Below, piece by piece: positions 26,754 through 46,462 of a stretch of DNA of 64,000 bases; within the stretch, counting starts at the first letter, position 1; every line of letters starts with the position of its first letter. Source of the DNA: an uncultured Eubacteriales bacterium (GTDB lineage Bacteria > Bacillota > Clostridia > Oscillospirales > Acutalibacteraceae); assembly GCA_934729465.1 (NCBI GenBank), contig CAKVEP010000007.1:9380-73379 (forward strand), written 5' to 3'. The translations under genes and the position numbers were made by a program. The notes beneath the pieces were generated by a model. It made no database searches. It was not told the DNA's origin and worked only from the letters and a program-made list of their open reading frames with translations.

Positions 26754-26782
26754 AAAATTTAATAGCCGCTAGAAATGCTTGA

Positions 26783-26815: not shown

Positions 26816-27125
26816 TGCGAGAAATAAAATAAAATTAACAAGTTTATGTAAATACACTCAAAAATTACAAAAAACAACCAATAATGCCAATAAAAAACGA
26901 AAAATCTATTATTTTTTAATACAGAATTAATGGTCAAAGTCGAAAAATAGTGATATAATTCTTTCATAAGGTAAAGTTCACAAAATTAATCAATATAATT
27001 GAATGTTATAAGTGAATAATCCTTTTGGTTTAATTCCTACAAATTAAAACTTCTATAAGGGAATTAAAATTTATTAAATAAGTAAATGAGGTGGTCGAAC
27101 ATATAAATAAAGTAAATTTTTATTA

Positions 27126-28112: not shown

Positions 28113-28256
28113 AAAAACACATCTAAATACGGTTAGCAATAAATTGGGGCTCATTTCCCTTTTTTATATGTTACATAAATTTTATACATCTAAGCTAATT
28201 TTTTAAGCGAAAGGAGAGAAAGGTTCTTACTTAAAAAGTAGAGAACCGAAAGAATT

Positions 28257-29978
28257 ATGGCAGAATATTTATCACCAGGAGTGTACCTAGAAGAATTTGA
28301 CAGTGGACCAGTTCCTATGGCAGGAGTTGGAACAAGTACAGTAGGATTTGTTGGAGTTGCAGAAAAAGGTCCGGTTATAGGAAGTCCTGTATTAGTAACA
28401 AGTCCATCTGATTTCACAAAGAAGTTTGGAGGATATTTGTCGGCAAGTGAATTCGGAGAATACAGATACTTAGCTTATGCGGTAAACCATTTCTTCATAA
28501 ACGGAGGCTCAAGAGCTTTTGTTATGAGAGTTGCGCCATCAGACGCAGTAACAGCAGCAAGTAAATGTGTTGAAGGAAAAGAAGGCATTATCGACATTAA
28601 AGCTAAGAACCCGGGTGCATGGGGAAACTCAGTAGTTGTAACATTCGCACCTGCAAGTGAGAGTAAATCTCAGGTTCTTGAAGACCTTGGAGAAGGCAAA
28701 TATCGTTTGAAAAATGCTGTGGGATTTAACCCTGGCGATGTTGTATCAACAGACGGTTTAGACAAGCCTGAATACAATGTTGTAAAAGCAGCTAAGGGCA
28801 ACAAGGTTACATTCGAAAAGCCATTTAAGGCGAAGATTGTGGACACAAACGTAGTGCCAAAAATTAAAATAAAAACCTGTGAACTTAAAGTCAAGGTAGA
28901 AAATGACGATGTTTCTGAAGTATATGAATTAGCAACATTAAATGTAAATGTTCCAGAATTTATAGAAAAAGTAATGGCAAAATCAGAGATAGTAGATTTA
29001 ACTGCTAAGCCGTTAACAGAAGCAAAGAATCCGATGGATTTAGTAAGAGAAGTTTTTGGCGGAAAAGACGAAGAAATAGTTGTTCCATTGGTAGGAGGAA
29101 CTAACGGAGCTGCAGCAAGCTTAACAGACGCTGACTTCATCGGTAAGGATGGCGGACCTGGCGAACGTACAGGTATTCAAGCTTTCTTAGACAATTCTGT
29201 TGTAAGTTTGATGGCAGTACCGGGAATAGTTAGCCCGAATGTTGAGTTAGCACTTGTAAATCATTGTGAGAAGCTAGGCAGTAGGTTTGCAGTGTTAGAC
29301 ATGCCTCAGAACTTAAAAACACCGACCGACTTATTACAACACAGAGATATAGTAGACAGTGATTACTGTGCAATGTATCATCCGTGGTTAAAGGTATTTG
29401 ACCCGCTAGACAAGAGAGACATATATATTCCGCCTTCAGGTTCAATACTTGGAATATATGCAAGAAGCGACAATGCAAGAGGAGTTCACAAAGCACCAGC
29501 AAATGAAGTTGTTGCAAATTGTACGGGACTTTCTGTAAACTACAACGTTGGTGAGCAAGATATGCTTAATCCAAAAGGAGTAAACTTAATAAGAAGGTTC
29601 CCTGGAGCAGGAATAAGAGTATGGGGTGCCAGAACGGCAACATCAAGACCTCTATGGAAATACATAAACGTAAGACGTTTGTTTATCTACTTAGAAGAGT
29701 CAATAAAGGCAAACACAAATTGGGTAGTGTTTGAGCCAAACGACCCGGCTCTTTGGGCTAGAGTACAAAGAACGATTGAAATATTCCTTGAAGGAGTATG
29801 GAAATCAGGAGCTCTTGCCGGAGGCGGACCTGGCGATTCATTCTTTGTTGACATTGGAACTAATACTATGTCGCAGGATGATATAAACAATGGTAGATTA
29901 GTATGTGTAATAGGTGTGGCGCCTGTTAAACCGGCAGAGTTTGTAATATTCCGTGTTACTCAGAAAACCGGTGAATAA
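28257..29978 (+). CDS. Contractile tail sheath protein
   Basis: The MAEYLSPGVYLEEFD... N-terminus and C-terminal sheath-domain motifs are present. 573 aa, with an inserted domain. Confidence 0.85.
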   Translation: MAEYLSPGVYLEEFDSGPVPMAGVGTSTVGFVGVAEKGPVIGSPVLVTSPSDFTKKFGGYLSASEFGEYRYLAYAVNHFFINGGSRAFVMRVAPSDAVTAASKCVEGKEGIIDIKAKNPGAWGNSVVVTFAPASESKSQVLEDLGEGKYRLKNAVGFNPGDVVSTDGLDKPEYNVVKAAKGNKVTFEKPFKAKIVDTNVVPKIKIKTCELKVKVENDDVSEVYELATLNVNVPEFIEKVMAKSEIVDLTAKPLTEAKNPMDLVREVFGGKDEEIVVPLVGGTNGAAASLTDADFIGKDGGPGERTGIQAFLDNSVVSLMAVPGIVSPNVELALVNHCEKLGSRFAVLDMPQNLKTPTDLLQHRDIVDSDYCAMYHPWLKVFDPLDKRDIYIPPSGSILGIYARSDNARGVHKAPANEVVANCTGLSVNYNVGEQDMLNPKGVNLIRRFPGAGIRVWGARTATSRPLWKYINVRRLFIYLEESIKANTNWVVFEPNDPALWARVQRTIEIFLEGVWKSGALAGGGPGDSFFVDIGTNTMSQDDINNGRLVCVIGVAPVKPAEFVIFRVTQKTGE

Positions 29979-30009
29979 TCAATAAGGTATATGAAAGGAG
30001 AGATTTATT

Positions 30010-30531
30010 ATGGCGTATAGCCCATTGCCAAATGCAACTGGCGTATTTGACTCAGAGGCTTTAACAGATTTTAAAATGCCTCTTCGTGGACACAGATTTT
30101 TAGCATTATTTGATGGAACAGATGTTATAACTTCATCATGGAAAACGATTACCGGAGGTCTTGAACAAATATCTCAAGACCCATTAGAGTATCGTGAAGG
30201 TGGGTTTACCTATCCGTGGAGCATGTTCTTCCCGAATGGTAAAACAAATCAGGGAAATACTGAGTTGGAATTTGAAAAAGGTATGTTCCTAGGCAACACC
30301 ACTATACCTGACTTCGTTAAAAGCTATTTTGACGGAACAAACACAAGTTACATTCAAACTGTTACCATAGACATATATGATGCTTATGGAAAAGAAGTAG
30401 TGGCAGAATATGTTTGTCATAAATGTTTCCCGACTGGCTATGACAACGGCGGAAGCATTGATGCAACAAGTGCAGACCAATGGATGGAAAAATTAAAAAT
30501 GAAATGCGAATGGATAGAGCGTAAAAAGTAA
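30010..30531 (+). CDS. Tail tube protein (gp19/Hcp-like fold)
   Basis: 173 aa. ...SSWKTITGGLEQISQDPLEYREGG... is the tube-family signature. Lies directly after the sheath gene. Confidence 0.7.
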   Translation: MAYSPLPNATGVFDSEALTDFKMPLRGHRFLALFDGTDVITSSWKTITGGLEQISQDPLEYREGGFTYPWSMFFPNGKTNQGNTELEFEKGMFLGNTTIPDFVKSYFDGTNTSYIQTVTIDIYDAYGKEVVAEYVCHKCFPTGYDNGGSIDATSADQWMEKLKMKCEWIERKK

Positions 30532-30622
30532 AATAGTTTATATTGTTATATCATCCCTGTTTTGTGGGATGATATAACATGTAATATAAAAATAAAATGT
30601 AGGAAAGTAGTGTGATGTTGGA

Positions 30623-30994
30623 ATGTCAGCTTTTGAAACAGAAATAGAATTTGTATTACCTAAGGGATATGTTGATGAGAAAGGTGAAGTTCATAAAAAG
30701 GGGAAAATGCGTTTAGCTAATGCAGCCGACGAAATTATACCTTTGAATGACAGAAGAGTAAAAATGAATCCTGGATACCTTAGCATTCTCTTGTTAGAGA
30801 GAGTAATAACACAACTTGGTACGTTAGAGAAAGTGGATGCTCAAGTAATCGAGAGTTTATTTACGGCAGACATGGCATATTTACAAGACTTATATCAAAA
30901 ATTCAATGCCGTTGAACCTCAGCTTATGGATGTGACATGCCCTAAGTGTAATCACAAATTTAGGATGGACGTCCCTTTTTTCGGGGAAGCCTAA
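30623..30994 (+). CDS. Tail assembly chaperone (gpE/G-like) with C-terminal zinc-ribbon CPKC..H..; source of a -1 frameshift product
   Basis: Position between the tube and tape-measure genes. Ends with T_TTT_TTC eleven nt before the stop. Confidence 0.55.
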   Translation: MSAFETEIEFVLPKGYVDEKGEVHKKGKMRLANAADEIIPLNDRRVKMNPGYLSILLLERVITQLGTLEKVDAQVIESLFTADMAYLQDLYQKFNAVEPQLMDVTCPKCNHKFRMDVPFFGEA

Positions 30995-31191
30995 AAAGTT
31001 ATCCACAAAAAGCTCTTTATGAAGAGATAGCTTTTTTGGCTTATTATTTACATTGGTCTCATGATGAGATTAGAAACCTTAGTCATAAGGAAAGAGCAAA
31101 ATACTGTAAGGAAGTTTCGAAAATAAACAAGAAAATGAATGCAAACGGGGAAGAAAATAAAAATATTTTTGACCTCGACAACTTTGATTAA
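30976..31191 (+). promoter_or_regulatory. -1 PRF slippery heptamer T_TTT_TTC (30976-30982) plus a ~70-codon -1 frame extension to the TAA at 31189-31191 (E' segment)
   Basis: The heptamer is in the correct codon register. The -1 frame is open for 70 codons with no start codon of its own until near its end. Confidence 0.5.
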
Positions 31192-31214
31192 ACAAAAAGG
31201 AAGGAGGATTATAT

Positions 31215-32333
31215 ATGGCTGAAGAGAATAATAAACAAGGTCAGCAATTGGGCATAACTAACTGGGCAGCGAATGCACTTGCGGGGATAACAGGAAAGTC
31301 GATTTTGAAAGATAAGTATGGTAGACCCAGAATGCCGGTTCCACAAATATCGTCTGAGGAATCGCTTCGCTCTGGTGGCGCTGCTAGGTTTAGATTTATA
31401 TTAACGCTAAACAATTTTACCTATGGATTTAAAAATATAACGGGTATGAAAGTGTCTAGGAACCTCAATCCAATTTTACAAGGTGGGGTAAATGACCAAT
31501 CAATTTTTGTTGGTATGCCGGATGCTGCTGATACAGAATTAACGCTTACAAGAGGCTTTCTAATAAGGGAGTGGCCCATTGCTACGACCGCTGCATTGAT
31601 GGCAGCCTCGCAAATACCGAATAATTTATTGAGAAGAACAGCGCTTATGGCGGTTGGATTGACAGACGCTCAATATACTTTAGAGCATGGACCTGCATTT
31701 GGAGATATAAAAGTATATAATCCTCGTACTTTTGAATTGTCAGACTGGTGGACATTCATATCTTATGGAATAATAGATAGAAGTCCTGATGGTTTGGACG
31801 CATCTAGCGGAGAACCTGCTATGGAGAGTATTACCCTTAAGGTGACTGATTTAAAACAAAGGTCTGTAAAGAGAATGCCGACAAATTATAATAGCGTAGT
31901 GAAAATGTTTCAGCTAGATGATTATGAAAACGAGTTCAAGCCTTTAGGAGGGGAGACTCAAAATAAAGGCAGCCACTACACCGGCGAAGAGGAAGGAACC
32001 GGAGGAGCTTTAGGCTTGAAAGATAATACGGGTAGTAATTACACCGGCGAAGAGGAAGAAACCGGAGGAGCTTTAGGCTTGAAAGATAGCACAGGTAGTA
32101 ATTATATAAAAAAGGATAAAGCTAATGTGGAAAGAGAAGCCAAAAAAGAAGCTTTGAAAAAGTCTATGGATAAGAAAAATCTTGGAAGTAGTTATACCAG
32201 TGAAGAGGAACGTAAAGAAAATTTGAAATTAGAAGAAGCTAAAAAGAGAGCTGCTGAAGAAAAGAAAGCTGAGCAAGCTCAAAAACAAAAGGAACAAGAT
32301 GCAATGGATAAATTTATAAGCGAGAATATTTAG
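31215..32333 (+). CDS. Second tube-like protein (tube-initiator/Afp5-gp54-like N-terminal domain) with a long disordered Lys/Glu-rich C-terminal extension
   Basis: ...FRFILTLNNFTYGFKNITGMKVSRNL..QGGVNDQSIFVGMP..ELTLTRGF is the tube-fold signature. Residues ~250-372 are low complexity with tandem repeats. Confidence 0.5.
   Translation: MAEENNKQGQQLGITNWAANALAGITGKSILKDKYGRPRMPVPQISSEESLRSGGAARFRFILTLNNFTYGFKNITGMKVSRNLNPILQGGVNDQSIFVGMPDAADTELTLTRGFLIREWPIATTAALMAASQIPNNLLRRTALMAVGLTDAQYTLEHGPAFGDIKVYNPRTFELSDWWTFISYGIIDRSPDGLDASSGEPAMESITLKVTDLKQRSVKRMPTNYNSVVKMFQLDDYENEFKPLGGETQNKGSHYTGEEEGTGGALGLKDNTGSNYTGEEEETGGALGLKDSTGSNYIKKDKANVEREAKKEALKKSMDKKNLGSSYTSEEERKENLKLEEAKKRAAEEKKAEQAQKQKEQDAMDKFISENI
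31977..32102 (+). repeat. Tandem 63-nt repeat x2 inside the tube-like gene (encodes YTGEEE(G/E)TGGALGLKD(N/S)TGSN)
   Basis: Two near-identical 63-nt units seen directly. Confidence 0.7.
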
Positions 32334-32417
32334 ACATTAATTATAATTTAACTTAATATTTATGTTTAAATGTTATAATAGAGAAAGGGAAATATAGTTG
32401 GGAGTGAGTGTGATAAT

Positions 32418-35387
32418 ATGAAAAATTTAAGAATGACAAAAGGAATAACAGTTAATAGTAGCTACAGAATAGGAGCGCTCACTCGAACTAATACGTTTTA
32501 TAATAACATATCTAAAATTCATGTAAACATAGGTTTACTGCAGTCCGACGACGTAGCAAAATACGATTTCGGAAATGAGCTTATATACAATACTTCAAAT
32601 GGGTCGTTACTTGAGCAAGAGGCACTTAGAAACATAACCGACCTATTACTACAATTACGTGCTGCACAAAGTGACCAAAATGTGTTTGTACAAAACAATA
32701 CGGTTGTAAGGCAGCAGATTTTAGACCAGTTAAAACGTGAAATATTCAATGTTCAAAATAATTTAACCCAAAAAGAAGTTAAACAATTAGAGGTAGTGTC
32801 AAACAACCTCTTTGATGAAGACACACTAAATGATTTAATAAAATCTTTATTAAGCGACACAAAAAAAAAATTAGATTATAGTTGGGACCCAAAAAGCAAT
32901 AATATTGCGTTGAGAGAGCCTGAAACTTCTTTAACCAACACAAAAGCAATAACGTCTTTTAAGCCTATAGACGTTATAAAGAAGTATCAGAATATTCTTT
33001 ATAACACGATAAATAACTTCTCAACAGATAGAGTATTGCGTAAAAACAATATAATCAACAAAACAAGGTATTACGACGCAGAGCAAACAAGAAATGAACT
33101 TGTTATAAGAGAAGTCAAACAACCTGTTGAAGTAACCACGGAAGAATTTATAAGAAAAGAAAATCTAATAGAAAACCTTGAGAAGGTATATAATGAGAAG
33201 CTGTTAAAAAGGGTAGACTTTACCCCATTAGTTACTAAAACGTTTTTAAAAACGCTTGAATCGGGCGGAATAAAGAACTATAAAGAGATAGTTTCTAAGG
33301 TATGGGACAAAGTATATTTAAAGTCGGAAGTTCCGGAAACTACGCTTTTAACCCATCATAAAATAACAGACAAAATTAATTCTGTTGAATTAAAGCAGGA
33401 TTTTATAGATACCTATTTTAATAAAATATTAACTCAAGACATAACAGGTTTAACGCTCTATAAGGATATAACAAGAGCGTATAGAAGTAAGAAATTAAAC
33501 TTAAAAAATGTGTTGATAAACAACAGTAATAAGGATTTTATTGAAACAGATATACTAAAAAGGTATAACTATATAACACGTTCTGTCAATGAAAAGGTCT
33601 ATAAAAATAAGTTGCTAACTGAGGCTAATTTAATTAATAAAACAGTAGACTACGAAATAGAGCAAAACAGGAACGTGGCAAAAACCCGAAATACGTTTTT
33701 ATATGAAACAGAAGTAGAGAAAGTATATAAAAAGAGCGTGTTCAATAAAGACGTAAGGAATGAAAATCGTTTAACTACAGTAAAGTTTGAAAACGAGTTT
33801 ACAAACGTAATAGAAACGGTAGCTAAGAAGACAGCAGAAACGGTAACGCAGAATAAGCTTTTAAACCGCTATGAAAATATGATTGAAACAACAGTTGAAA
33901 GGGTGTTTAAAGATACTGTTGAAAATCGTAGAAGCAGAACTAACAGCAAGGTTATAAATAAGAAAAATGTTAAGAGCTTTAAAGACATAACTGATGTAAC
34001 TTCAAAATTATCTGTTATAAACGAGTTTGAAAAACAATATGAAAAAAGTGCGTTTAATGTAGAAAACCTCAAAGAGAGAGTATTAAACAGGAAGGCATAT
34101 CACACACTTAAAAATACGCTAAATGCCTTAGAAATTACGAATGAAAAACATTTTGATATTGTAAAACACGAAAACGAAATAATAAACAGACATAACAGAT
34201 TAGTGTCTAATATTATAGAGAACGTGGGCATTAACAGAAATATTGACAGAACAAATCTTGTAAATAAGTATGTTAAAAACGATAAAGATATTGAGCAATT
34301 AGTAAATAAAATAATTGAAAATCAACCTGATGAAAACTCAATAAAAAGCTTAATTTCAAAATCTAAAAATGTAACCACGAGTGAAATAAACAGATTAATA
34401 AATGTCAATAATTATAGAGATGTAATAAATCAAATCGATACCAATTTAATAAATAATTACAATGAAAACGAAATTAAAAGAATTATTGAAACAGAAAATC
34501 TGATAAATAGGAACGTTTCAAATAAAGTTGATATTTTAGAGTATTTGCCTCAAATACAAAAAATTCAAGAGAACATATTAAATACTAAAGAAATAAAAAG
34601 GGTAAAAGATAGAACCTACAGCTCAACCTTAGACTATGTGGACAAAATATTATCTAAAAATTTAATAGAGATTAACGAGGAGAAGATAAACGAACACATA
34701 AAAAATTACAGGGATAAAATACAAAGTAATTTAACAATTTTAAACCTTGTTGAAAGTAACGCCAAAGGTAGAGAAGTCTTTAACGACGTTGTTGAAAAAA
34801 GGTATAGAGAAAACCTGTTTGTAGAGCAGCCGAACAAGATTTTAGAAAAAATAGAAAAATTATATAACGTTAATAAGGTTGTAAATCAAAAGAAAGTTAA
34901 TGTGCTTCCTCCAACGATCCTTCAGCATAGAAGAACGAGAGTTAATGAAAATACTATCTATAGAGAAGTAGAAGAAAATCAACTTTCGTATCACACTCAA
35001 GAGGTAGAAGACATAGCAAAAGCAACGCTTATAAACGATAATGAATCTTTAAACCTCAGCAATATCACTGAGATGGTTTATAAGAAAGACCCAGTATATA
35101 ACGAGATTAAAAAGGTGGAACAAAAGCAACAGGAAGCCAAGAAGGAAGACGAAGAAAGGATAGTAAAAAGAATAGAAAGTAAAATAGCGCCGATTTTGCG
35201 TAAGGCTCAAAAAGCAGAACCTCAGGTTTCAAACGTTAAGCAGGAAAAGGGTTTAACGACAAAAGAAGTGGAAAATCTGATACAGTCTTACATAAGCGAC
35301 ATAAATGTTAGTACAATATCAAAAATTGTAATAAACGAAGTCCAGCAAAAGATGAATTTGGACCGCAGAAGAAGAGGGATAATGTAG
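32418..35387 (+). CDS. Tape-measure-like / tail-length protein (989 aa, Asn/Lys/Glu/Ile-rich, predicted all-helical)
   Basis: Located where the TMP is expected (after chaperone and tube-like genes, before the hub). Lacks the Gly/Ala-rich hydrophobic repeats of classical TMPs. Confidence 0.45.
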   Translation: MKNLRMTKGITVNSSYRIGALTRTNTFYNNISKIHVNIGLLQSDDVAKYDFGNELIYNTSNGSLLEQEALRNITDLLLQLRAAQSDQNVFVQNNTVVRQQILDQLKREIFNVQNNLTQKEVKQLEVVSNNLFDEDTLNDLIKSLLSDTKKKLDYSWDPKSNNIALREPETSLTNTKAITSFKPIDVIKKYQNILYNTINNFSTDRVLRKNNIINKTRYYDAEQTRNELVIREVKQPVEVTTEEFIRKENLIENLEKVYNEKLLKRVDFTPLVTKTFLKTLESGGIKNYKEIVSKVWDKVYLKSEVPETTLLTHHKITDKINSVELKQDFIDTYFNKILTQDITGLTLYKDITRAYRSKKLNLKNVLINNSNKDFIETDILKRYNYITRSVNEKVYKNKLLTEANLINKTVDYEIEQNRNVAKTRNTFLYETEVEKVYKKSVFNKDVRNENRLTTVKFENEFTNVIETVAKKTAETVTQNKLLNRYENMIETTVERVFKDTVENRRSRTNSKVINKKNVKSFKDITDVTSKLSVINEFEKQYEKSAFNVENLKERVLNRKAYHTLKNTLNALEITNEKHFDIVKHENEIINRHNRLVSNIIENVGINRNIDRTNLVNKYVKNDKDIEQLVNKIIENQPDENSIKSLISKSKNVTTSEINRLINVNNYRDVINQIDTNLINNYNENEIKRIIETENLINRNVSNKVDILEYLPQIQKIQENILNTKEIKRVKDRTYSSTLDYVDKILSKNLIEINEEKINEHIKNYRDKIQSNLTILNLVESNAKGREVFNDVVEKRYRENLFVEQPNKILEKIEKLYNVNKVVNQKKVNVLPPTILQHRRTRVNENTIYREVEENQLSYHTQEVEDIAKATLINDNESLNLSNITEMVYKKDPVYNEIKKVEQKQQEAKKEDEERIVKRIESKIAPILRKAQKAEPQVSNVKQEKGLTTKEVENLIQSYISDINVSTISKIVINEVQQKMNLDRRRRGIM

Positions 35388-35405
35388 AAACAAATGTTTT
35401 AAAAG

Positions 35406-36632: not shown

Positions 36633-36635
36633 GGA

Positions 36636-37403: not shown

Positions 37404-37422
37404 GTTAAGGAGGAGTGAGTTT

Positions 37423-37809: not shown

Positions 37810-37841
37810 GTTTAAGAAAAATATTATAAGAAAGGAAGATA

Positions 37842-40800
37842 ATGTTGAGTAATATACCAAAACTTGATGGAAGAACGTCTGGTGATATATTAGAGCAAGT
37901 CAAGAACATGGCTAAGCAATACACTCCGGAATGGAACTTCGATGAATACAGCTCCGATGTTGGAATAGTATTTTCGAAAATATTTTGCGATATGCTTGAA
38001 GGCACTATAAGCAGGTATAATAAAACGTCTTATAATTATTATCTCACATTTTTAAATATGCTCGGCACAAAACTTCGTCCTGCATCATCTGCTGAAGGAA
38101 TGATAACGGTATCAGCAACAAGGGGAGCCTACATACCAAAAAATTCTCAGCTTTCGGCAAACGCAGATACCGAAGAAGGAAGCGTTATATATGAAACTAC
38201 AGATAGTCTGTTAGCCATAAATACGGCAATCAAAGGAGTGTTTTATACCGACGGTCTTTCAGATACTATAGTAAAGGTTTGCGAGGTAGTGGATGATTCC
38301 AACGAAAAGATGAAGCCGTTTAGAATATTTGATGATGTGTCTCATGAAAATTTACAGTGTCATGAATTGTATTTCCGTGATGACACTATATTTAACATGA
38401 AAAAATCAGACATAACATTTTTATTTTACAATGAAATTTCCGAAAAGGGAGAAAAAATGTTACCGGATTTATTTTCAGATAAAACCAATGTAAAATGGCA
38501 GTATTCTATGGGAGAAAATAATTGGGTAAACATAAAAAATGTTGAAAAAGTTGACCATGGTGTGCGATTAATTTTTGAAAATAAAGTTGTAAGCGCTGAA
38601 GCGGTAAAAGAACAAAGTAGATTTATAAGATGTGTGTTTAAAAAAGCGTTGAGCGAAGAAGTTGCGGTTACGAGAATAGAATATAAATCTAATGCAAGCA
38701 ATATGACTCCTGACGATATGACGTCGGAGGACGAAGAGCTAGACAAAAATGATTTTTTCCCGTTCAAGGAACAATACAATTTATATGATTGTTTTTATTT
38801 TTCCTCTGAAGAGGCATTCACCAAAAGAGGAGCAGAAGTGAGCGTTGAGTTTGATTTACAGTTTGTAAAAATAAAAAACGAAATGGTAGACCCATCCATC
38901 CAAAGAAAATACAGAAACATAATGAGTGGTATGGATTTTGCAGACATGGAACCTTCTGATGTTATGATAGAAAAAGTTTCTTGGGAATACTGGAATGGTA
39001 CAGGTTGGGCAAAGCTTACTACGAAAAAAGAATATGAAGAGCTGTTTAAAATAAGGGAGCAAGACTACAACTCAGAAGGAATTAAAAAGGTGTTTAAATT
39101 TGTTTGTCCGGCTAATTTGACTGAGTATGTTGCAACAACTTCCGAGGGATTTTATATAAGAGCCAGAATAACTAAAATATTAAACCAGTTCAACTCTTAT
39201 GCAGACTACATTTCCCCATATATCCATAACATCAATATAACCTACGATTATCCGGTTCAGGGACATATTTGTAAAAGCGTTATGGTTAAGAATAATATGG
39301 AGGAATACCCCCTGACCGTTTACAACAATGGAGCGGTGAAGATTTTTAAAAAGACGCTCTATGAAAATCCGGCAATGTATTTTTGTTTCACAGAACCTTT
39401 GATAGAAGGAACTATACGCTTTTTCGTAGACATACAAGAGGGAATATACAGATATAATCCGTCAACGAAATGGGAGTATTGTGCCGACGATAAAAAGGGA
39501 GGATTCGTGTGGAAACACATAGATGTGTTAGACCTAACGGAAGATTTTTCTCATAGCGAAACAATAACAATGATAGGTAGAAAAGATTTTAAAGAAGTAC
39601 AACTTTTTGGGGAAACGGGATATTTTATAAGGGTTATAAACCCAGATGGAAGGTACCATACCAACAAAGACATTTCAACAAGACCGGTTATAAATAATAT
39701 AATGTTAAATGCGGTAAGGGTTGTTCAGAGGGATACTCACACACCGGAATATTTTTCTATAGTACAAAATGAAGCAAATAAAGTGTGTCAGTTGTCATAT
39801 CCGAATGCGGCGAATATAGAGGTGTGGGTTGACGAGTTTGGAGCTTTATCAACAAGCGACCAAGAAAAATATTTAGCGCTTGCAGGGGAGCAATCTGAAC
39901 CGGAATATGATGATTTGGGAATGCTTAGAAGACTATGGATAAAATGGAAACCTGTTTCAACATTGATATGTACAGGTATGTATGACAGAGTGTATGAAGT
40001 TGATTATTCAAAAGGAGAAGTCCTTTTTGGAGATGGTAAAAATGGTAAAATTCCTCCAGAGCAGTTTAGCGAAAGCATAAGAATAAATTATTCTGTGTGT
40101 AACGGTAGCTATGGAAATATCCAGTCAGAAATGATAACTGATTTTATGGAAGCAATCCCTGGAGTTAGCGGTGTTAAAAACCCTGAGCCGATAATGGGAG
40201 GCGTTGACAAGGAAACAATAGACAGAGCTGCAAGTAGAATGTTTGGACAGGTTGCAGGAGCTAACAGATTGGTTTCGCTTTCTGATTTTGAAAGTACAAT
40301 TAAATACAACGACAGAAATATATATAAAGTAAAATGTAAAGCTCATGTTGACCAAGACAGTAATCCATGTTTGGGCATAATATCTGTTGCGGTACTTCCT
40401 AGGGACTACATGCAGGGATATGAAAAATTCCAAGGGATAAAAAATAGGATTTGGAAATTCGTGGATGAAAAAGCATCGATTAATTTAGTAAAGACTTCTA
40501 AGATAAGAATTTTTGAAGTTAAGTATGTTGAAACGGTTATTAGTATAGACGTGTCTATAAGAGACTTTAATATGTATCAAGACGTTCATAAGGGGATAAG
40601 AAGAAGACTACAAAAATTTTTAAACCCGATAACGGGAAATTTCTCTGGTAAGGGATGGAATATAGGCGAATTTCCCAGAAAAGAATTTATATATAACTAT
40701 ATAAAAAATGTTCCAAACATAAAATGGATAAAGAATATAAACATATTCACCAAGGTCATAACAGAGCAAGGAAAAAAAGAAGTAGATTTTGAAAAGATAA

Positions 40801-40862
40801 GAAAAGAAAGCTTTGTGGTGCCTATTTTCGGGGAACCTGAGATTAATATTTCTATGGACTAA
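37842..40862 (+). CDS. Baseplate J-like protein (gp6/gpJ family), giant 1006-aa form
   Basis: N-terminal Baseplate_J-type region (...DILEQVKNMAKQYTPEWNFDEYSSDVGIVFSKIFCDMLEGTISRYNKTSYNYYLTFLNMLG...) followed by long extensions. Confidence 0.6.
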   Translation: MLSNIPKLDGRTSGDILEQVKNMAKQYTPEWNFDEYSSDVGIVFSKIFCDMLEGTISRYNKTSYNYYLTFLNMLGTKLRPASSAEGMITVSATRGAYIPKNSQLSANADTEEGSVIYETTDSLLAINTAIKGVFYTDGLSDTIVKVCEVVDDSNEKMKPFRIFDDVSHENLQCHELYFRDDTIFNMKKSDITFLFYNEISEKGEKMLPDLFSDKTNVKWQYSMGENNWVNIKNVEKVDHGVRLIFENKVVSAEAVKEQSRFIRCVFKKALSEEVAVTRIEYKSNASNMTPDDMTSEDEELDKNDFFPFKEQYNLYDCFYFSSEEAFTKRGAEVSVEFDLQFVKIKNEMVDPSIQRKYRNIMSGMDFADMEPSDVMIEKVSWEYWNGTGWAKLTTKKEYEELFKIREQDYNSEGIKKVFKFVCPANLTEYVATTSEGFYIRARITKILNQFNSYADYISPYIHNINITYDYPVQGHICKSVMVKNNMEEYPLTVYNNGAVKIFKKTLYENPAMYFCFTEPLIEGTIRFFVDIQEGIYRYNPSTKWEYCADDKKGGFVWKHIDVLDLTEDFSHSETITMIGRKDFKEVQLFGETGYFIRVINPDGRYHTNKDISTRPVINNIMLNAVRVVQRDTHTPEYFSIVQNEANKVCQLSYPNAANIEVWVDEFGALSTSDQEKYLALAGEQSEPEYDDLGMLRRLWIKWKPVSTLICTGMYDRVYEVDYSKGEVLFGDGKNGKIPPEQFSESIRINYSVCNGSYGNIQSEMITDFMEAIPGVSGVKNPEPIMGGVDKETIDRAASRMFGQVAGANRLVSLSDFESTIKYNDRNIYKVKCKAHVDQDSNPCLGIISVAVLPRDYMQGYEKFQGIKNRIWKFVDEKASINLVKTSKIRIFEVKYVETVISIDVSIRDFNMYQDVHKGIRRRLQKFLNPITGNFSGKGWNIGEFPRKEFIYNYIKNVPNIKWIKNINIFTKVITEQGKKEVDFEKIRKESFVVPIFGEPEINISMD

Positions 40863-40883
40863 GTATGCAGAGGGTGAGAAGAA

Positions 40884-43043
40884 GTGATAGAATTACAAAA
40901 TTTAAATAATCAATCTCTGGAAGAAATTCTTGATGACGCTAAAAGACAAATTTCTTATTTAAGCGACGAATGGACAAACCATCAAGAGGCTGACCCCGGA
41001 ATAACACTCGTTGAGTTGTTTGCTTGGCTTAAGTGGGTTCAGCATGAGTATTTAAACAGAGTATCTCCCGGAGTAAAGAAGAAGTTTTTAAAACTTTTAG
41101 AGATAGAGCCTTATAAAAACAAAGGCTCGAAAGCACTTTTACAAGTTGCTGATTTAGAAAAAGACATAAATATACCAAAGGGAACTAAATGGCAGGCAGG
41201 AAACGTAGTGTTTGAAAATCCGAAGGAGCATAGTTTAACTAATTCTGAAATATTAAGTGTTTTGTTTGAGAACCCCGATTTTTCGATGGTTTCTGAATAC
41301 TACAAGTTTGACAGAACAAGAATTTTTCATCTTTTTGGCGATAAATTCAGGTCTGTTGATAAGAATGTAAAACGTCAGTTCACGATAAATTTTGATAAAC
41401 CGTTATCAAGTAAAAAAGAGTTTGGTATTTATTTTGAAGTGTACACAGGCGGAAAATTAAAACGTAATCCGGTTAGTCAAGACGACGATTTCTTAGAAAT
41501 GGCGGAAGTGAAATGGGAATATTACGGCAAAGAAAACGGAGAGCTTGGTTGGCATGAAGTGGTTGTGAACCAAGACGACACACATAGTTTTTTATTTTCA
41601 GGCGTTGTGAATTTAACGATAAACGGTAGTATGTGGGCAAACAACGGAGTGTATTCATTAAGATGTAAATTAGTGAGCGAAGAGTATGATTTTCCTCCGA
41701 AGGTGTTAAGTATTTTAACTAATGTTTTTCAGGTGGAGCAAAAGTCAACTATGTGTGAAAACGTTACGATAAAGAAAAAAGAGCTTTCTAAGAATATGTC
41801 TGTAAAGATAAAGACCCACATGGCTATATACGGACAGCACATAGTTTATTTTAAAAAGGGAAAAAGCTGGGTACAAACAAATAATTACAGGGTAGAAAGA
41901 GACGTAGAAAAGGGAAACATCAATTTATATGTTGAAGAGAAAAATTTGAATGTAAGCAAATACGGCGAAGATGAAGAATTGGTAATGCTCGTGTCATACG
42001 ACGGCTCTATTGCAAGGAAAATGATACTTGGCAGCGGAACAGGAACTTCAGCACAATTTATTGAATTTAGAGATAAAAATGTGCTTTACGACGGGTTTGA
42101 AATATTAGTTGGGAAAACCGTGAATAATACAGAGATTTTTGATAAATGGAGAAGAGTAGATGACTTCTTTTCTTCGACTAAATATGACAAAGATTATGTT
42201 TTAGACCACACTAAAGAAATGATTACCTTTGGAAACCACGAAAATGGATACGCTCCGAGAGTGGGGAAAGACAACATAAGGCTATGTAGGCTTGAATATT
42301 GTATGGGCTCAAATTCAGACGTGAAAAAAGGCATGATAAATAAGGTTCAAACAGAGAATACAACGCTGAAAAAAGCCAGAATTAATCAAGTAACATCAGC
42401 GGTTGGAGGCAGAGATACAGAAACCATAGCACATGCCGAGGCAAGGGCAGCGGAAGTTTTTGCCGACTGCGGAAGAGCTGTTACTTTGGAGGACTACGAA
42501 AAAATTATAAACAATACTCCCGGACTGTTGTTTAAAAATGTTAAAGTGTTACCTAATTATATGGTTGGAGAGAATTGTAATGAACAAAACTGTATAACGG
42601 TTGCGGTTAGGTGGAACGACAGAATAGGACAAAATTTACCAATAAGCTATGAAAAAAATATAATGCATCAAATTGATAAATACCGTCTTATTAACACTAA
42701 AGTTAAAGTGGTGTGTCCGGAGTATATAGGCTTGATAATAAGCGGAGAAATAGTTGTAAATTCGTTTTACAGAGAGCGTGATAGGTTAATAGAAAAAAGT
42801 ATATTAAGCTATATAAACGTGGTGAACATGGAAATGGGCAAGCCGTTACATTTCGGTGATTTATTTGGCATGATAGACAATTTAGACTACGTTTCATATA
42901 CCAATAAATTATATATAACCCCAATAGGAAATTATATAGAAAAAACAGTTTCCGAGGATATAATAGTACCGCCGAACGGTATATACTATGTGAAAGAAAT
43001 AAATTTGAATTATCTGAAAAGTTCAGAAATTTATAACGATTAG
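40884..43043 (+). CDS. Second baseplate J-like protein (gp6/gp7-like), 719 aa
   Basis: N-terminus ...DPGITLVELFAWLKWVQHEYLNRVSPGVKKKFLKLLEIEPY... parallels the Baseplate_J start of the preceding gene. Confidence 0.5.
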   Translation: MIELQNLNNQSLEEILDDAKRQISYLSDEWTNHQEADPGITLVELFAWLKWVQHEYLNRVSPGVKKKFLKLLEIEPYKNKGSKALLQVADLEKDINIPKGTKWQAGNVVFENPKEHSLTNSEILSVLFENPDFSMVSEYYKFDRTRIFHLFGDKFRSVDKNVKRQFTINFDKPLSSKKEFGIYFEVYTGGKLKRNPVSQDDDFLEMAEVKWEYYGKENGELGWHEVVVNQDDTHSFLFSGVVNLTINGSMWANNGVYSLRCKLVSEEYDFPPKVLSILTNVFQVEQKSTMCENVTIKKKELSKNMSVKIKTHMAIYGQHIVYFKKGKSWVQTNNYRVERDVEKGNINLYVEEKNLNVSKYGEDEELVMLVSYDGSIARKMILGSGTGTSAQFIEFRDKNVLYDGFEILVGKTVNNTEIFDKWRRVDDFFSSTKYDKDYVLDHTKEMITFGNHENGYAPRVGKDNIRLCRLEYCMGSNSDVKKGMINKVQTENTTLKKARINQVTSAVGGRDTETIAHAEARAAEVFADCGRAVTLEDYEKIINNTPGLLFKNVKVLPNYMVGENCNEQNCITVAVRWNDRIGQNLPISYEKNIMHQIDKYRLINTKVKVVCPEYIGLIISGEIVVNSFYRERDRLIEKSILSYINVVNMEMGKPLHFGDLFGMIDNLDYVSYTNKLYITPIGNYIEKTVSEDIIVPPNGIYYVKEINLNYLKSSEIYND

Positions 43044-43054
43044 GGGGTGACGTT

Positions 43055-44209
43055 TTGGCATCAGGAGCGAAAAGTATAGTTTTAAACAGAGAAGAAGACT
43101 GGAAAGAAAAAAGCGTGTTGTTCCACATAAGTTTTGATAACGATGAATTAGTATCGGAAAACAAAACAGGTGAAAATGGAGTGTATATCTCGAACTGTTT
43201 TGACAGCGGTGAAAACGAAACAGTTTGGCATAGATTAAGATTAAACGTAGATTTACCACCCACAGGCTCGTTAAAACTTAGATTGTATGCAAGCGATGAA
43301 ACAAGCGTTATAATACCGGCTTCCGGAGGAAAGGGAATGTCTAGGGTAAATATCAACGAGTTTATATCAGACAAAAGTGTTAATATAAACAGAAAGGTTG
43401 ATATGTTTGATTACATAGGTGCGAGATTGTATGAAAATCCTAACGACGTGCTTATGTTTGACCAAGTTGGAAGGTATTTATGGGTTTGTATAGAAATAAT
43501 TAACTACGAGCAGGAAAAAACAATAATAAAAAGCATGAAAATAGAATTTCCGAGAGTGTCATTTGTTGACTACTTGCCCGAGATATATAAGGAAGGACTT
43601 AACACAGATTCATTTTTATCACGTTATTTGGGAATATTCCAAAATATATATGTTGACCTTGAAGACCGAATAGACGTTACTCCAACGAACTTTGACCCCA
43701 ATACTACAACAAAGGGATTTCTTAATTGGATGGCAGAGTGGTTCTCGATAAAGGACGCAGCGATATGGGGAGAAAAAAAGCTTAGAATGATACTTAGAGA
43801 TTCAGTTAAGATTTACAAAATGAAAGGTACAAAACGAGCCATTTCGAAGATAGTAGAGGCGTACACAGGCATTGAACCGATAATAGTTGAAAAGTTTGAT
43901 ATAAAGGAAAATCAGTATTATCAAAAGCATAAAAGCCTTATGGACGAGCTATATGGCGACAATGGATTTGTATTTACAGTTATAATAAGCGACAAATACG
44001 TTAAATCTTCAGAGGAGTATATAGAATTGTTAAGAGTAATAAATAGCGTAAAACCGATAGATTCAATATGTAACTTAGTGGTGCTGAACGACAAAATTTA
44101 TTTAGACCATCACTGTTATATGGGAATGAATTCGTATATAGCACAAAATCAAAATCTTGTTATAGGAGAAGGTCAGCAGGATTTAAACACATTAATGATT
44201 GCAGAATAA
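43055..44209 (+). CDS. Tail protein I (P2 gpI family)
   Basis: ...DYLPEIYKEG...FLSRYLGIFQNIYVDLEDRI...FLNWMAEWFSIKDAAIWGEKKLRMILRDSVKIYKMKGTKRAISKIVEAYTG... is the gpI signature. Confidence 0.65.
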   Translation: MASGAKSIVLNREEDWKEKSVLFHISFDNDELVSENKTGENGVYISNCFDSGENETVWHRLRLNVDLPPTGSLKLRLYASDETSVIIPASGGKGMSRVNINEFISDKSVNINRKVDMFDYIGARLYENPNDVLMFDQVGRYLWVCIEIINYEQEKTIIKSMKIEFPRVSFVDYLPEIYKEGLNTDSFLSRYLGIFQNIYVDLEDRIDVTPTNFDPNTTTKGFLNWMAEWFSIKDAAIWGEKKLRMILRDSVKIYKMKGTKRAISKIVEAYTGIEPIIVEKFDIKENQYYQKHKSLMDELYGDNGFVFTVIISDKYVKSSEEYIELLRVINSVKPIDSICNLVVLNDKIYLDHHCYMGMNSYIAQNQNLVIGEGQQDLNTLMIAE

Positions 44210-44241
44210 AATAAAAAAATAGCGTTAAAGGAGGACTTGCG

Positions 44242-44550
44242 GTGGAAAAACAAATGTTAGATAAAATTGAAGCTTTATTAAACGACGAAGACTTTATGAT
44301 GGCATTGTTGGCGCAAGACACAGCTGAAGATGTGAAGGCACTATTTTTACAGCAAGAAATAGAGCTTTCGGATGAATATGTGGAAAATCTGGGGAAAATG
44401 CTAGTAAAGCTTCTAACAAGAGGCGGAGAACTCACAGATGAAGATTTAGCTGAAATTTCCGGGGGAAGAGATTTCGGAAGTCGGATTAATTTGGACTTTA
44501 TAAATAATTTAAAAAATGATGTATCAATTGGAAACTGGCTTAAATTTTAA
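44242..44550 (+). CDS. Small protein with Nif11-like leader domain and double-glycine motif (...ELTDEDLAEISGG) followed by a 27-aa C-terminal peptide RDFGSRINLDFINNLKNDVSIGNWLKF
   Basis: N-terminal ~55 aa match the Nif11/N11P leader pattern (L.K.EALLNDEDFMMALLAQDTAEDVKALFLQQEIELSDEYVE). A GG motif is positioned as in N11P RiPP precursors. GGAGG RBS upstream. Confidence 0.5.
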   Translation: MEKQMLDKIEALLNDEDFMMALLAQDTAEDVKALFLQQEIELSDEYVENLGKMLVKLLTRGGELTDEDLAEISGGRDFGSRINLDFINNLKNDVSIGNWLKF

Positions 44551-44586
44551 ATAGAGATATAAAATATTTGAGAGGGGTATAATGAT

Positions 44587-46377
44587 ATGAACAATAAGCA
44601 GTATTATTCGTGTGAGCGTAATCATTACTTTTTTGGTAAGCTTATGACCGTAAGGGACTTTGAGAGTGAACAAATTTACTTCAACTCAAAAAGACGCCTT
44701 ATAAACAGAATGTTAAACGGAGTTGGAATAGTTTCGGGACTAGACGTAATTCTTGTTGACAACAAAACATTTTCACTTGAACCGGGAATGGCTCTTGACT
44801 ACATGGGAAGAGAAGTGGTGGTTTCAGAGCCTTGTATTAGACGTTTAAATGTTATTGAAGGGTTTGAAGAGAATAAGGACAAAGGAATATTGTATTTATG
44901 CATTAGATACAAGGAAGACTTAACAGAAACAACCTTTTCAGTTGCAGGGTCAGGCAAAAATAGTGGTGTTGGTGAGGAATATAATAGAATATCAGAAAAT
45001 TATGAGTTATTTTTAACCCCGACGGCTCCAAATGAACAAGAATTAAAGCTTGATAATTTAGTAACGCAGAAGATAGAATTATACAATAAAGACGGAATAA
45101 AAATTATTTTGAATGCATCAAGATATGTAAATCCTGGCAAATGTATAAAAATGTCGGTAACGTTTGAAAAGGAAAATGTTGAAGCTCCGGTTAAATATTC
45201 GTTTGACATTGGCGGAGAGTTCTTTAGAAACACAAACGGAGATAAAAAATTTAAAGTTGAGTATCAGGAATCAGAGGTTTCAACATATAAATCGAATACA
45301 GTAGATTTGTTTATGTATTGCGACGCCACAGTTGATGCACTTTCGAATTTAATTGTAGACAAAGATTCATTTAAATTAACCGTTGGAAAAGATGAATTTT
45401 CTATAGAAAAAGATATAGAAATTCCTGTGTCTATAAAAAACACTCCAATACGTGATTTGATAACGAATGATTATTACGCTAAGCATTTTGTAGACACAAT
45501 AGAAAATGTTGACGGAAAAGAAATTTATCTTGCAAAATTCCATATAGTAACGAACCAAATCACATATTTTATAGAAGGATTTGAAAAACATCCGTTTAAA
45601 CAGTATTTGTTTAGCAACGAGCTGATGAGAGTGCTTGAGAACGTCGACGTAGACAACCTTAAAGCTCCGGTTGTTGATAATGAAAAATTTATATCAAAAG
45701 AAGTTAATCCAGAGGTAAAGGAAATCCCCGAGCCGAAGATAGACAACATTATGACAGGCGTTGAAAGAATAAATTTAGGATTTAACCCTAAGGTTGGAAA
45801 ATCCTATTATTCATATGAGTTTGTACATGGTTTAGGAGAAGGGAATGTTGCCGTAGTAACAGCGATAGACAACAAGGCTAATTATCTCACAGACGAAAAA
45901 GGCTTATTAGTGTTTGGAGACAAAGGTATATTTGGTAAAGAAGAGATAAGTGTGTCTGCGCCAAACGTACAAATAGCAGCAATAGCTAACTCGGAAAAGG
46001 GTACGATACGTTTAGGAGTAAGGCTTGTTGAAAAAACAACAGCTCAGGCAGTAGACGTGCGCTGGTGGGCGTTCAAGCCTGTTGAAACCATTAAACCGGA
46101 AGAAGACTTAGCTATAGATGAAGACATAAAGGTTGTTATAACGCCAAACACAACGAGGGTAAAACCGCTTGAGAAGGTAAGGTTTGAAGCACATATTGAA
46201 GGGTCAAACAGCCAAGAAATACGTTGGGCAATGGCTGAAAGTAATACCGGAACGATAGACAATAATGGACTATACTCAGCACCGGCAAAAGAAGGCGTGT
46301 ATGAAATAAAGGCATACAGCGTTAAATTCTCAGACAAGAGTACTTCAGCTTATGTTGTTGTAAGTTCAGCAGAATAG
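44587..46377 (+). CDS. Putative tail fibre / receptor-binding protein with C-terminal Ig-like (Big_2) domain
   Basis: Last gene of the cluster, 596 aa. The C-terminal ~90 aa have a Big_2-like pattern (VVITPNTTRVKPLEKVRFEAHIEGS...NGLYSAPAKEGVYEIKAYS). Confidence 0.45.
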   Translation: MNNKQYYSCERNHYFFGKLMTVRDFESEQIYFNSKRRLINRMLNGVGIVSGLDVILVDNKTFSLEPGMALDYMGREVVVSEPCIRRLNVIEGFEENKDKGILYLCIRYKEDLTETTFSVAGSGKNSGVGEEYNRISENYELFLTPTAPNEQELKLDNLVTQKIELYNKDGIKIILNASRYVNPGKCIKMSVTFEKENVEAPVKYSFDIGGEFFRNTNGDKKFKVEYQESEVSTYKSNTVDLFMYCDATVDALSNLIVDKDSFKLTVGKDEFSIEKDIEIPVSIKNTPIRDLITNDYYAKHFVDTIENVDGKEIYLAKFHIVTNQITYFIEGFEKHPFKQYLFSNELMRVLENVDVDNLKAPVVDNEKFISKEVNPEVKEIPEPKIDNIMTGVERINLGFNPKVGKSYYSYEFVHGLGEGNVAVVTAIDNKANYLTDEKGLLVFGDKGIFGKEEISVSAPNVQIAAIANSEKGTIRLGVRLVEKTTAQAVDVRWWAFKPVETIKPEEDLAIDEDIKVVITPNTTRVKPLEKVRFEAHIEGSNSQEIRWAMAESNTGTIDNNGLYSAPAKEGVYEIKAYSVKFSDKSTSAYVVVSSAE

Positions 46378-46418
46378 TATTATTAAAGTATAAATTAAAA
46401 GCGAATAATTGAAAAAAC

Positions 46419-46462
46419 AAGCTCATGCTAAAATTTACTTTAAGCATGAGCTTTAAATTTTA
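46419..46462. terminator. Bidirectional rho-independent terminator closing the tail cluster (11-bp stem aagctcatgct/agcatgagctt)
   Basis: Perfect 11-bp stem with a 13-nt loop, flanked by A-runs upstream and T-runs downstream. Confidence 0.65.

Follow-up and report, generated by a model that had tools for sequence, protein, structure and literature searches.

A probable contractile injection system operon headed by mazF and a conserved gene, p328, in uncultured gut and rumen Clostridia

The DNA analyzed here is a stretch of 64,000 nucleotides (nt), hereafter the window, from contig CAKVEP010000007.1 of an uncultured Eubacteriales bacterium of the Acutalibacteraceae (assembly GCA_934729465.1, forward strand, positions 9,380 to 73,379). 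Its GC content of about 35% is Firmicute-like, and at 28257-46377 it carries 13 open reading frames (ORFs) of contractile-tail type, all on the plus strand, uninterrupted and intact (Table 1). An earlier note, made from the sequence letters, had described them as 13 tail genes of one direction set in housekeeping DNA, and all of them are present and intact where they had been placed. The upstream flank consists of genes for an alanine symporter, yajC, tgt, queA, asd, dapA and dapB, and the downstream flank of an S11 D-Ala-D-Ala carboxypeptidase gene (PBP5-type), pgi, yceD, der, plsY, typA, lytR, coaBC, ansA and metG. The conserved unit begins 5' of the tail genes, with mazF, encoding an endoribonuclease toxin, and p328, encoding a conserved protein without a recognized family, and the whole block spans 26.4-46.4 kb; mazF, previously called an orphan, thus opens the block as a conserved member and is no unrelated neighbour. 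Judged from gene content and comparison with relatives, we consider it likely that this block constitutes the main structural operon of a contractile injection system (CIS) of lineage II, fixed in a clade of uncultured Clostridia from gut and rumen.

The identities proposed earlier for the sheath, tube, hub, gpV spike, gp25, gpI and two Baseplate_J proteins are backed by profile matches, some of them through orthologues. The closest Protein Data Bank (PDB) entry to the sheath is 9ezm, the 574-aa Cis2 sheath of the Halogeometricum CIS (E 1.6e-113), followed by the Streptomyces CIS entries 8bky and 8bl4 and then by Afp, PVC, tCIS and AlgoCIS, with R-pyocin and T4 far behind. The best PDB match of the inner tube is Pvc1 (1.8e-5). 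The second tube-like protein scores 23.9 bits against gp19, under the 28.2 cut-off; its orthologues pass PF06841, and relatives carry in its place a shorter version together with a separate coiled-coil gene of ~210 aa. Orthologues of the hub match Phage_GPD. The C-terminal tail of the hub is glycine-zipper-like (GGGIGGALSGATGALSGAVGALSSLLK) and the spike opens with a Gly-rich stretch; these tails, together with the basic character of the spike, may be membrane-active features. Three further labels of the earlier note hold in part. The protein called tape-measure-like has no family match in profile searches, and the label draws on its composition, its conserved termini and its position, which is that of the tape measure genes in Brevibacillus and Heliobacterium; in relatives its length ranges from 720 to 989 aa, with conservation confined to the termini. 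The supposed Big_2 fibre matches Big_2 only below threshold (E=0.009, residues 516-580), whereas its N-terminus identifies it as a member of the NCBIfam family CIS13_fam. The small protein p102 does read as a Nif11-like double-glycine leader, its leader-like part ending in ...LAEISGG (...LTDEDLAEISGG) ahead of a 27-aa core peptide, but Pfam lends the name no support. No profile matches p102 and no transporter gene lies near it; the ORF is specific to the lineage of the window, absent between Cis12 and Cis13 in all relatives examined, and it probably does not belong to the core of the CIS. Sequence searches of the PDB gave no match for Cis13 or the chaperone, and none of the PADLOC defence models matched mazF, p328, p102, the tape measure, the hub or Cis13. 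No transmembrane segment was found in any protein of the cluster, and a membrane anchor within it was accordingly rejected (no 19-residue hydrophobic window above 1.7).

Table 1. Features of the block at 26.4-46.4 kb, in window coordinates
Feature	Position	Strand	Basis and remarks
EndoA/MazF-type endoribonuclease toxin (mazF)	26379-26753	+	PemK_toxin PF02452 2.7e-36; alternative TTG start at 26334
p328 promoter, sigma-70-like with extended -10 (predicted)	26931-26959	+	TGGTCA-17-TGnTATAAT, promoter scan
p328, conserved unknown protein	27126-28112	+	basic disordered N-terminus, small beta domain, acidic linker, long helical hairpin
Sheath upstream element and 5' leader	28148-28256	+	motif GGCTCATTTCCCTTTTTTATATGTTA at 28148-28173; Shine-Dalgarno-like GAAAGGAG at 28209-28216; hairpin at 28222-28247
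Sheath (Cis2)	28257-29978	+	PF04984 and PF17482; phrog_23 at 9e-74
Inner tube (Cis1), 173 aa, strongly diverged	30010-30531	+	T4 gp19 PF06841 at 1.1e-7; TIGR02241 weak
Tail assembly chaperone with Zn ribbon and -1 extension	30623-31191	+	0 frame 30623-30994, 123 aa; DUF6760 extension to 31191
Second tube-like protein (Cis5-type tube initiator)	31215-32333	+	repeat-rich; K/E-rich C-terminal tail
Putative tape measure (Cis14-like), 989 aa	32418-35387	+	N/K-rich, net charge +24
Baseplate hub (gpD, N-terminal half of Cis8)	35406-36632	+	phrog_52, phrog_196; VgrG_rel weak
Spike (gpV, C-terminal half of Cis8)	36636-37403	+	Phage_base_V 5e-15; net charge +27
gp25-like sheath initiator (Cis9)	37423-37809	+	GPW_gp25 at 1e-13
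Baseplate J-like Cis11a (J1)	37842-40862	+	Baseplate_J, TIGR02243; PDB match 9gtp
Baseplate J-like Cis11b (J2)	40884-43043	+	Baseplate_J, TIGR02243
Cis12 (gpI-like baseplate protein, fibre adaptor)	43055-44209	+	Tail_P2_I at 5e-10
Small ORF p102, 102 aa	44242-44550	+	Nif11-like double-glycine leader by eye; no family match
Cis13-family baseplate-attached "fibre", 596 aa	44587-46377	+	CIS13_fam 6e-28, residues 9-154

Between the two tube genes lies the tail assembly chaperone, for which a programmed -1 ribosomal frameshift ahead of the tape measure gene had been predicted, and the comparison across loci bears this out. The 0-frame protein, which gives a weak match to phrog_508, ends in ...CCT TTT TTC GGG GAA GCC TAA, with the slippery heptamer T_TTT_TTC at 30976-30982; the -1 frame is open at 30964-31191, and the fusion product formed by a slip on the heptamer matches DUF6760 at 3.6e-16. 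Among 89 unique loci bearing a chaperone homologue, 69 keep the -1-frame motif YP....YEE...HW..DE....EH.ER..WC.EIS.IN, with no start codon 5' of it in 62 of them, and T_TTT_TTC or T_TTT_TTG is present in 59 of the 89. Taken together, these alignments constitute strong comparative evidence for programmed frameshifting. They also give DUF6760, a domain of unknown function, a context, namely as the C-terminal extension of a CIS tail-assembly chaperone. Two chaperone products made through a -1 frameshift 5' of the tape measure are otherwise a trait of P2, PBSX and tailocins, and in this respect the P2/PBSX-type layout proposed in the earlier note stands. The proteins themselves, however, belong to CIS families, with a Pvc1-like tube, Cis11a and Cis11b, Cis12 and Cis13.

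Compared with the core set defined for CIS (PMC6899500), the cluster contains the Afp1/5-type tube (gp19/TIGR02241), the Afp2/3/4-type sheath, whose best PDB matches are all CIS sheaths, and the counterparts of Afp8, Afp9 and Afp11, with hub and spike as separate genes, a gp25 protein and two Baseplate_J proteins of the TIGR02243 type. An Afp7-like LysM/CIS_tube initiator is lacking from the window cluster. No Afp15 AAA+ ATPase is present in the 64-kb window or in ~90 related loci, and tblastn found no match in the window to the Afp16 cap/terminator (DUF4255). Placement in lineage II follows from the tube, the double Cis11, Cis12, Cis13 and the chaperone with DUF6760. At the locus Afp12 and Afp13 are present and PAAR is absent, the combination that defines subtype IIb (PMC6899500, Table 1), and subtype IIb is also the assignment given by a sheath tree in a recent preprint (bioRxiv 10.1101/2025.07.29.667580). 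By contrast, the cluster has no P2 FII/XkdM-type tube, terminator or completion proteins, lysis cassette or variable fibre tip, as P2 and R-tailocins do, and its single Cis2-type sheath, with no TssB/C pair, TssJLM, ClpV or transmembrane protein, sets it apart from canonical type VI secretion systems (T6SS; types i-iii). Searches of the window with haloarchaeal proteins (tblastn) found no DUF4255 cap, AAA+ Cis15 or PAAR, and cap, Cis15 ATPase and PAAR domains were likewise missing from every large window ORF scanned against Pfam and PHROGs; no holin or endolysin was found among the window ORFs tested. Nor are there head, portal, terminase or lysis genes contiguous with the contractile cluster, whose neighbours on both sides, in the window as in all relatives, are housekeeping genes. 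The earlier note is therefore confirmed both in its list of absences (ATPase, terminator, lysis, head and packaging genes for the contractile module) and in its picture of a free-standing, head-less contractile module with features of extracellular CIS (eCIS).

The family to which this cluster belongs is widespread. The exact sheath protein recurs on many gut-metagenome contigs with identical flanks, and at least 120 protein clusters share 69% identity or more with it. Scanning genomes with an alignment of gp25 gave 27 loci, from metagenome-assembled genomes (MAGs) of uncultured Clostridia, Ruminococcaceae and Eubacteriales (human, goat, rumen) and from Ca. Paraimprobicoccus trichonymphae; the 27 gut and rumen loci have one common 12-gene order. 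The cluster genes are intact and syntenic in the MAGs of more than 25 species from gut and rumen, where they lie between housekeeping flanks and with no head genes, at 30-80% protein identity. More distant matches of the scan, ~50 loci of Paenibacillus, Brevibacillus, Heliobacterium and Syntrophomonas, keep this order and add a CIS_tube+LysM Cis7. A viral origin was rejected: IMG/VR holds no sheath relative of 70% identity or more, its best sheath match stands at 50%, and the matches there are other eCIS loci. A plasmid collection held only distant CIS (Streptomyces, Halogeometricum and others). On the evidence of these comparisons, the cluster is a long-resident, vertically inherited chromosomal system under purifying selection and no prophage remnant; intact genes, a kept frameshift site and compensatory changes in a leader hairpin (described below) are what indicate such selection over long divergence. 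The right flank is partly syntenic within sub-lineages. In many relatives (L011, L012, L016, L017, L019, L021-L023) LemA, a TPM-domain protein and, where visible, SpoIIR lie 3' of Cis13, at ~18.7-20.3 kb, in the position held in the window by the PBP5-type carboxypeptidase and pgi.

Conservation is unevenly spread over the particle. Within the gut family the sheath is 70-74% identical, the chaperone 73-81% and gp25 48-65%, whereas the proteins of the inner needle (tube, second tube, hub and spike) are only ~30-40% identical, and the tube itself 28-35%; the needle proteins thus diverge much faster than the sheath, chaperone and Cis13 (~70-80%). Correspondingly, the gut-family tube barely matches gp19, as against 1e-49 for the Brevibacillus tube. 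Cis13 is 48-87% identical across 20 species in every 40-residue block, with 78-87% in its N-domain, 48-64% in the middle and 69-87% over residues 401-596. Conservation along the whole length of this protein makes a strain-specific receptor-binding role unlikely.

The relatives also provide some indication of the lifestyle of the clade. The "small-genome clade" of the Acutalibacteraceae, comprising Ca. Paraimprobicoccus and human and ruminant MAGs, has been read as a group of intracellular energy parasites of gut protists that possess an ATP/ADP translocase (PMC10579323), and eCIS of subtype IIb have been reported from Acutalibacteraceae MAG-71 and from the majority of this clade, in a preprint on rumen-ciliate symbionts (bioRxiv 10.1101/2025.07.29.667580). 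That preprint proposes the eCIS as an ancient adaptation to intracellular life and notes "putative toxins" nearby. In two human-gut relatives (L180, 3587-5128; L177, 1149-2690) a gene for a TLC ATP/ADP transporter (PF03219, 3.6e-140) lies ~200 nt 5' of mazF, which ties the family to the translocase-bearing Acutalibacteraceae clade. In the permanent protist endosymbiont Ca. Paraimprobicoccus trichonymphae (L025; AP027925.1, 1205265-1225636) only ORFs for a tape-measure-like protein, hub, spike and gp25 survive, with no matches for the sheath, tube and Cis11-13 genes, and the cluster appears to be decaying there.

The genes at the head of the block are as constant as the tail genes themselves. 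A PemK/MazF gene and p328 precede the sheath gene in every relative whose upstream DNA was checked, including L007, L009, L091 and L093, and a metagenome scan seeded with a p328 alignment yielded 17 loci, with the order mazF-p328-sheath in all 12 that had enough upstream DNA. This holds across four upstream contexts of the pair: asd-dapAB, RNase J-gdpP-rplI, lepA-hemN, and a Zn-peptidase or ATP/ADP translocase gene. Neither gene occurs in any CIS locus of IMG/VR. MazF aligns over its full length to the Bacillus EndoA/PemK structures 4hke and 4me7 (E~1e-45). Relative to Bacillus EndoA, the CIS-linked protein has a short extra C-terminal tail, which in most relatives ends in (S/P)TY or TT. A dapB terminator (26217-26245) and a promoter-like site (26269-26298) precede mazF, and an AT-rich hairpin with a T-run follows its stop codon; with this predicted promoter and terminator, mazF is a transcription unit of its own. 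Of a type II mazEF module the locus has the MazF fold and no adjacent MazE: dapB and mazF lie 166 non-coding nt apart, and in 5 lineages neither side of mazF has a small ORF that is conserved. A 51-aa ORF at 26775-26930 was considered as an antitoxin gene and set aside, as neither it nor its counterparts are conserved. MazF as a regulator of CIS mRNAs was likewise set aside, since UACAU occurs at 0.79/kb in CIS genes and 0.73/kb in housekeeping genes, in both slightly under the codon-shuffle expectation.

Relatives of p328 are 298-334 aa long; a single-sequence search found 2 homologues and a profile search 30, all unnamed, and no match to a family, defence model or fold was found. In canonical relatives (L095, L137, L138) the slot of p328 is occupied by the DUF4255 cap gene, and p328 was examined as a diverged cap and rejected (hhalign probability 0.1%). 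The promoter block of p328, AAAAATTAATGG...GTGnTATAAT, is invariant across 5 diverged loci. Downstream of p328, the motif GGCTCATTTCCCTTTTTTATATGTTA occurs as a single copy in the window and once per locus in relatives, and a leader hairpin sits between the Shine-Dalgarno-like GAAAGGAG and the ATG of the sheath gene. Of the 13 pairs in this hairpin, 4 show compensatory changes, including in Brevibacillus and L081, and no Rfam family matches the conserved leader and intergenic regions. The motif and leader together may serve in transcription, as promoter or operator, and in the control of translation.

From their constant association we infer that mazF and p328, each with its own predicted promoter, are functionally tied to the CIS, whether in regulation, release or stress coupling. 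The stronger proposition, that both genes are working parts of the CIS and that an antitoxin-less EndoA-type RNase is coupled to it in this clade, we regard as unlikely. One version would have p328 restrain MazF until CIS assembly or stress frees it; the freed toxin would then drive dormancy, or an altruistic lysis that releases the particles and replaces the missing lysis cassette. Another version would make MazF an effector delivered by the CIS. Should either be true, the coupling would represent a new wiring of a toxin to a phage-tail machine, in gut bacteria possibly living inside protists.

How the particle might be built and used can be outlined from its parts. The hub, spike, gp25, two Cis11 proteins, Cis12 and Cis13 would form the baseplate; the Zn-ribbon chaperone and its DUF6760 frameshift product would aid the ~990-aa tape measure in templating a tube of Cis5-like and Cis1 subunits; and the Cis2 sheath would polymerize round this tube, such that triggered contraction would push the basic spike and tube into a membrane. 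The cap (DUF4255), PAAR tip and AAA+ ATPase would be supplied from a second genomic locus. That these three are encoded elsewhere in the genome seems to us somewhat better than an even proposition, and a split locus is at least as likely as a true loss of ATPase and cap. This view derives, by adjacency alone, from Table S5 of the preprint, in which matches to Afp16, PAAR and Afp15 have consecutive locus tags away from the main cluster in several genomes (00578/00580-00581-00582; 00215-00216-00217/00219; 00253/00255-00256-00257) (bioRxiv 10.1101/2025.07.29.667580). The reduced particle without ATPase or cap suggested in the earlier note accordingly describes the window, though these adjacent matches elsewhere in relatives speak against extending it to the genome. 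The non-diversifying Cis13 fibre points to one conserved target. The target would be a conserved membrane, most plausibly one belonging to a protist host or to neighbouring cells, which the particle would reach once released or exposed; the constancy of Cis13 and the intracellular life of several clade members in protists are the grounds for this suggestion.

Several observations weigh against this account. Genes for the cap, ATPase, PAAR and LysM-Cis7 are absent from the window and ~90 related loci, and if cap, ATPase and PAAR are truly missing from the genome, assembly and termination must work differently. The preprint tables are permissive, with dozens of ATPases for each genome, and even the position of Cis13, in the Afp15 column of Table S5 (bioRxiv 10.1101/2025.07.29.667580), and the split-locus view depends on nothing beyond the adjacency of such matches. 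The window has no ATP/ADP translocase (TLC) gene, and therefore does not itself support membership of its host in the endosymbiont clade. The cell wall is that of a monoderm, with neither a lysis nor a membrane-anchor gene at hand, and the route to the target is unexplained; no effector gene was recognized. The apparent decay of the cluster in the permanent endosymbiont L025 indicates that the system is not universally required.

The same features must be weighed under other explanations. The unrecognized R-type tailocin of the earlier note, with particles freed by lysis of the producer to kill related Clostridia by membrane depolarization, would account for a head-less contractile tail in a chromosome, for the lack of recognized effector genes, and for an order of sheath, tube, frameshifted chaperone, tape measure and baseplate like that of P2, PBSX and diffocin. 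Yet the tube, baseplate and fibre are of CIS and not P2/XkdM families, no holin/endolysin cassette is present, and the cluster is fixed clade-wide instead of patchy. Moreover, the putative receptor-binding C-terminal part of Cis13 is 69-87% identical over 20 species where tailocin specificity determinants diversify, and eCIS have already been reported in the clade; we judge a tailocin quite improbable. Less credible still, to the point of being nearly negligible, is a decaying myovirus prophage remnant with no present function. The missing head and lysis genes and the fragmentary copy in Ca. Paraimprobicoccus are what such a remnant would predict, but mazF, p328 and the 13 ORFs are intact both here and in over 25 species with 30-80% protein identity, and two further elements have been maintained, the programmed frameshift site and a leader hairpin that shows compensatory changes.

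A more serious competitor, though in our estimate still an unlikely one, is a cytoplasmic or membrane-anchored CIS that acts from inside the producer, either by T6SS-like outward firing, for which the haloarchaea and the T6SSiv of Amoebophilus are models, or by Streptomyces-like, stress-induced death of the producer, with MazF as a component of that circuit of stress and death. Among solved sheaths, the closest are indeed those of the membrane-bound haloarchaeal and the cytoplasmic Streptomyces systems, the haloarchaeal Cis12 and Cis13 are proposed membrane contacts (PMC11566945) and Cis13 is here non-diversifying, lysis genes are lacking, and MazF is invariably linked. Set against this are a thick monoderm wall that would hinder outward firing, the absence of any membrane-anchor or transmembrane protein in or beside the cluster, UACAU sites that are alike in CIS and housekeeping genes, and the separate promoter and terminator of mazF. 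We continue to favour a lineage-II CIS whose particles would reach a conserved membrane after release or exposure.

The remainder of the window contains one other phage-derived element. As the earlier note had maintained, the head genes (2.5-8.5 kb) are those of a siphovirus-type prophage equipped with its own major tail protein and tape measure, and this element lies ~9 kb from the CIS cluster, with seven housekeeping genes (alanine symporter to dapB) between. In this prophage (1-17709) there are genes for TerL, portal, protease, capsid, major tail and tape measure, and none of distal-tail or lysis type was recognized 3' of the tape measure. Its end is formed by a recombinase fragment together with a partial tRNA (17658-17709), and the element is possibly defective. 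At its left end lie two paralogues in tandem of ParB-like nuclease/methyltransferase type (7-690 and 702-1274), along with a Mom-like gene (1247-1969). On the other side of the cluster, amid housekeeping genes, a 578-aa ORF at 57115-58851 has no Pfam family and gives a marginal PADLOC match to LmuB (E=0.004).

CIS are in development as devices for programmable protein delivery, and what they do naturally in Gram-positive gut bacteria is essentially uncharacterized. Gut metagenomes of humans and ruminants contain the present family in abundance, and it is conserved in a clade proposed to parasitize gut protists. To recognize the cluster as a CIS, and not as a tailocin or a dead prophage, with mazF and p328 in the unit, changes which experiments make sense, and the probable encoding of cap, ATPase and PAAR elsewhere does so likewise.

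Among known systems, P2, R-pyocin, PBSX and diffocin share with the window the order sheath, tube, chaperone (with -1 frameshift), tape measure, hub, V, W, J, I and fibre, but differ in having other tube and chaperone families, a single J, terminator and completion genes, a lysis cassette and diversifying fibres. Afp and PVC (lineage I) have in common with it a sheath, gp19-type tube, gp25, Baseplate_J, gpI-like protein, fibre and tape measure; three sheath paralogues, a fused VgrG, PAAR, a LysM Afp7, in-operon Afp15 and Afp16 and downstream toxin payload genes are found in Afp/PVC only. The eCIS of Paenibacillus and Brevibacillus (eBAP3 fibres, Tail_P2_I adaptor; PMC12923769) resemble the window in the order from sheath to Cis13, the frameshifted chaperone and the leader hairpin. 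They alone have tubes that match gp19 at E 1e-49 and a CIS_tube+LysM Cis7 between tape measure and hub; their Cis12 is much larger, and their Cis13 only ~30% identical.

The T6SS-like CIS of Halogeometricum borinquense (9ezm; PMC11566945) matches the window throughout. It has been placed in clade IIa, with Bacillota as its nearest relatives by Cis11 (PMC11566945). The window sheath is 40% identical overall to that of H. borinquense, with the same 574-aa architecture and a C-terminal domain aligned at E 3e-91, and the chaperone is 50% identical to a 178-aa protein encoded 5' of the DUF6760 gene. The spike is 29% identical to the baseplate V protein and gp25 matches gp25; J1 matches the 1064-aa Cis11 over its full length, J2 the 646-aa Cis11 and gpI Cis12, and the N-domain of Cis13 is homologous to Hbor_38800. 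Both systems have a separate hub and spike and two Cis11 proteins. Only H. borinquense carries in-cluster DUF4255, AAA+ ATPase and PAAR genes, DUF4157 toxins with immunity genes, and a gene for an anchor with six transmembrane segments. It lacks the tape measure, mazF and p328, and its DUF6760 is a separate overlapping gene and not a frameshift product. Its cap gene adjoins the AAA+ ATPase gene after the second tube gene, as opposed to the position directly 5' of the sheath in L095, L137 and L138.

Closest of all are the Acutalibacteraceae eCIS of the preprint (bioRxiv 10.1101/2025.07.29.667580), compared through its gene tables. Its Table S3 gives a gene order like that of the window (tape measure, tube, tube, sheath; hub, spike, gp25, J, J, Cis12, Cis13) in human-gut and rumen MAGs, again without Afp6, Afp7 or an in-cluster PAAR (Afp10). 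In contrast to the window, the set is called "complete", with Afp15 listed two genes from the sheath, where mazF lies in all loci here, and Afp16 elsewhere. The preprint text makes no mention of MazF, and its CIS passages and Table S3 have no counterpart for p328, for the frameshift or the hairpin of the leader, or for the pattern of conservation; nor did the literature on contractile injection with Clostridia, MazF, Oscillospirales or DUF6760 yield anything specific. The window system is almost certainly the eCIS of the preprint. It belongs to an already recognized CIS lineage, in a clade where it was recently noted, and not categorically new; the features that appear to be unreported are the invariant mazF-p328 module, the programmed frameshift into DUF6760, the leader element, and the asymmetry in conservation between needle and outer proteins.

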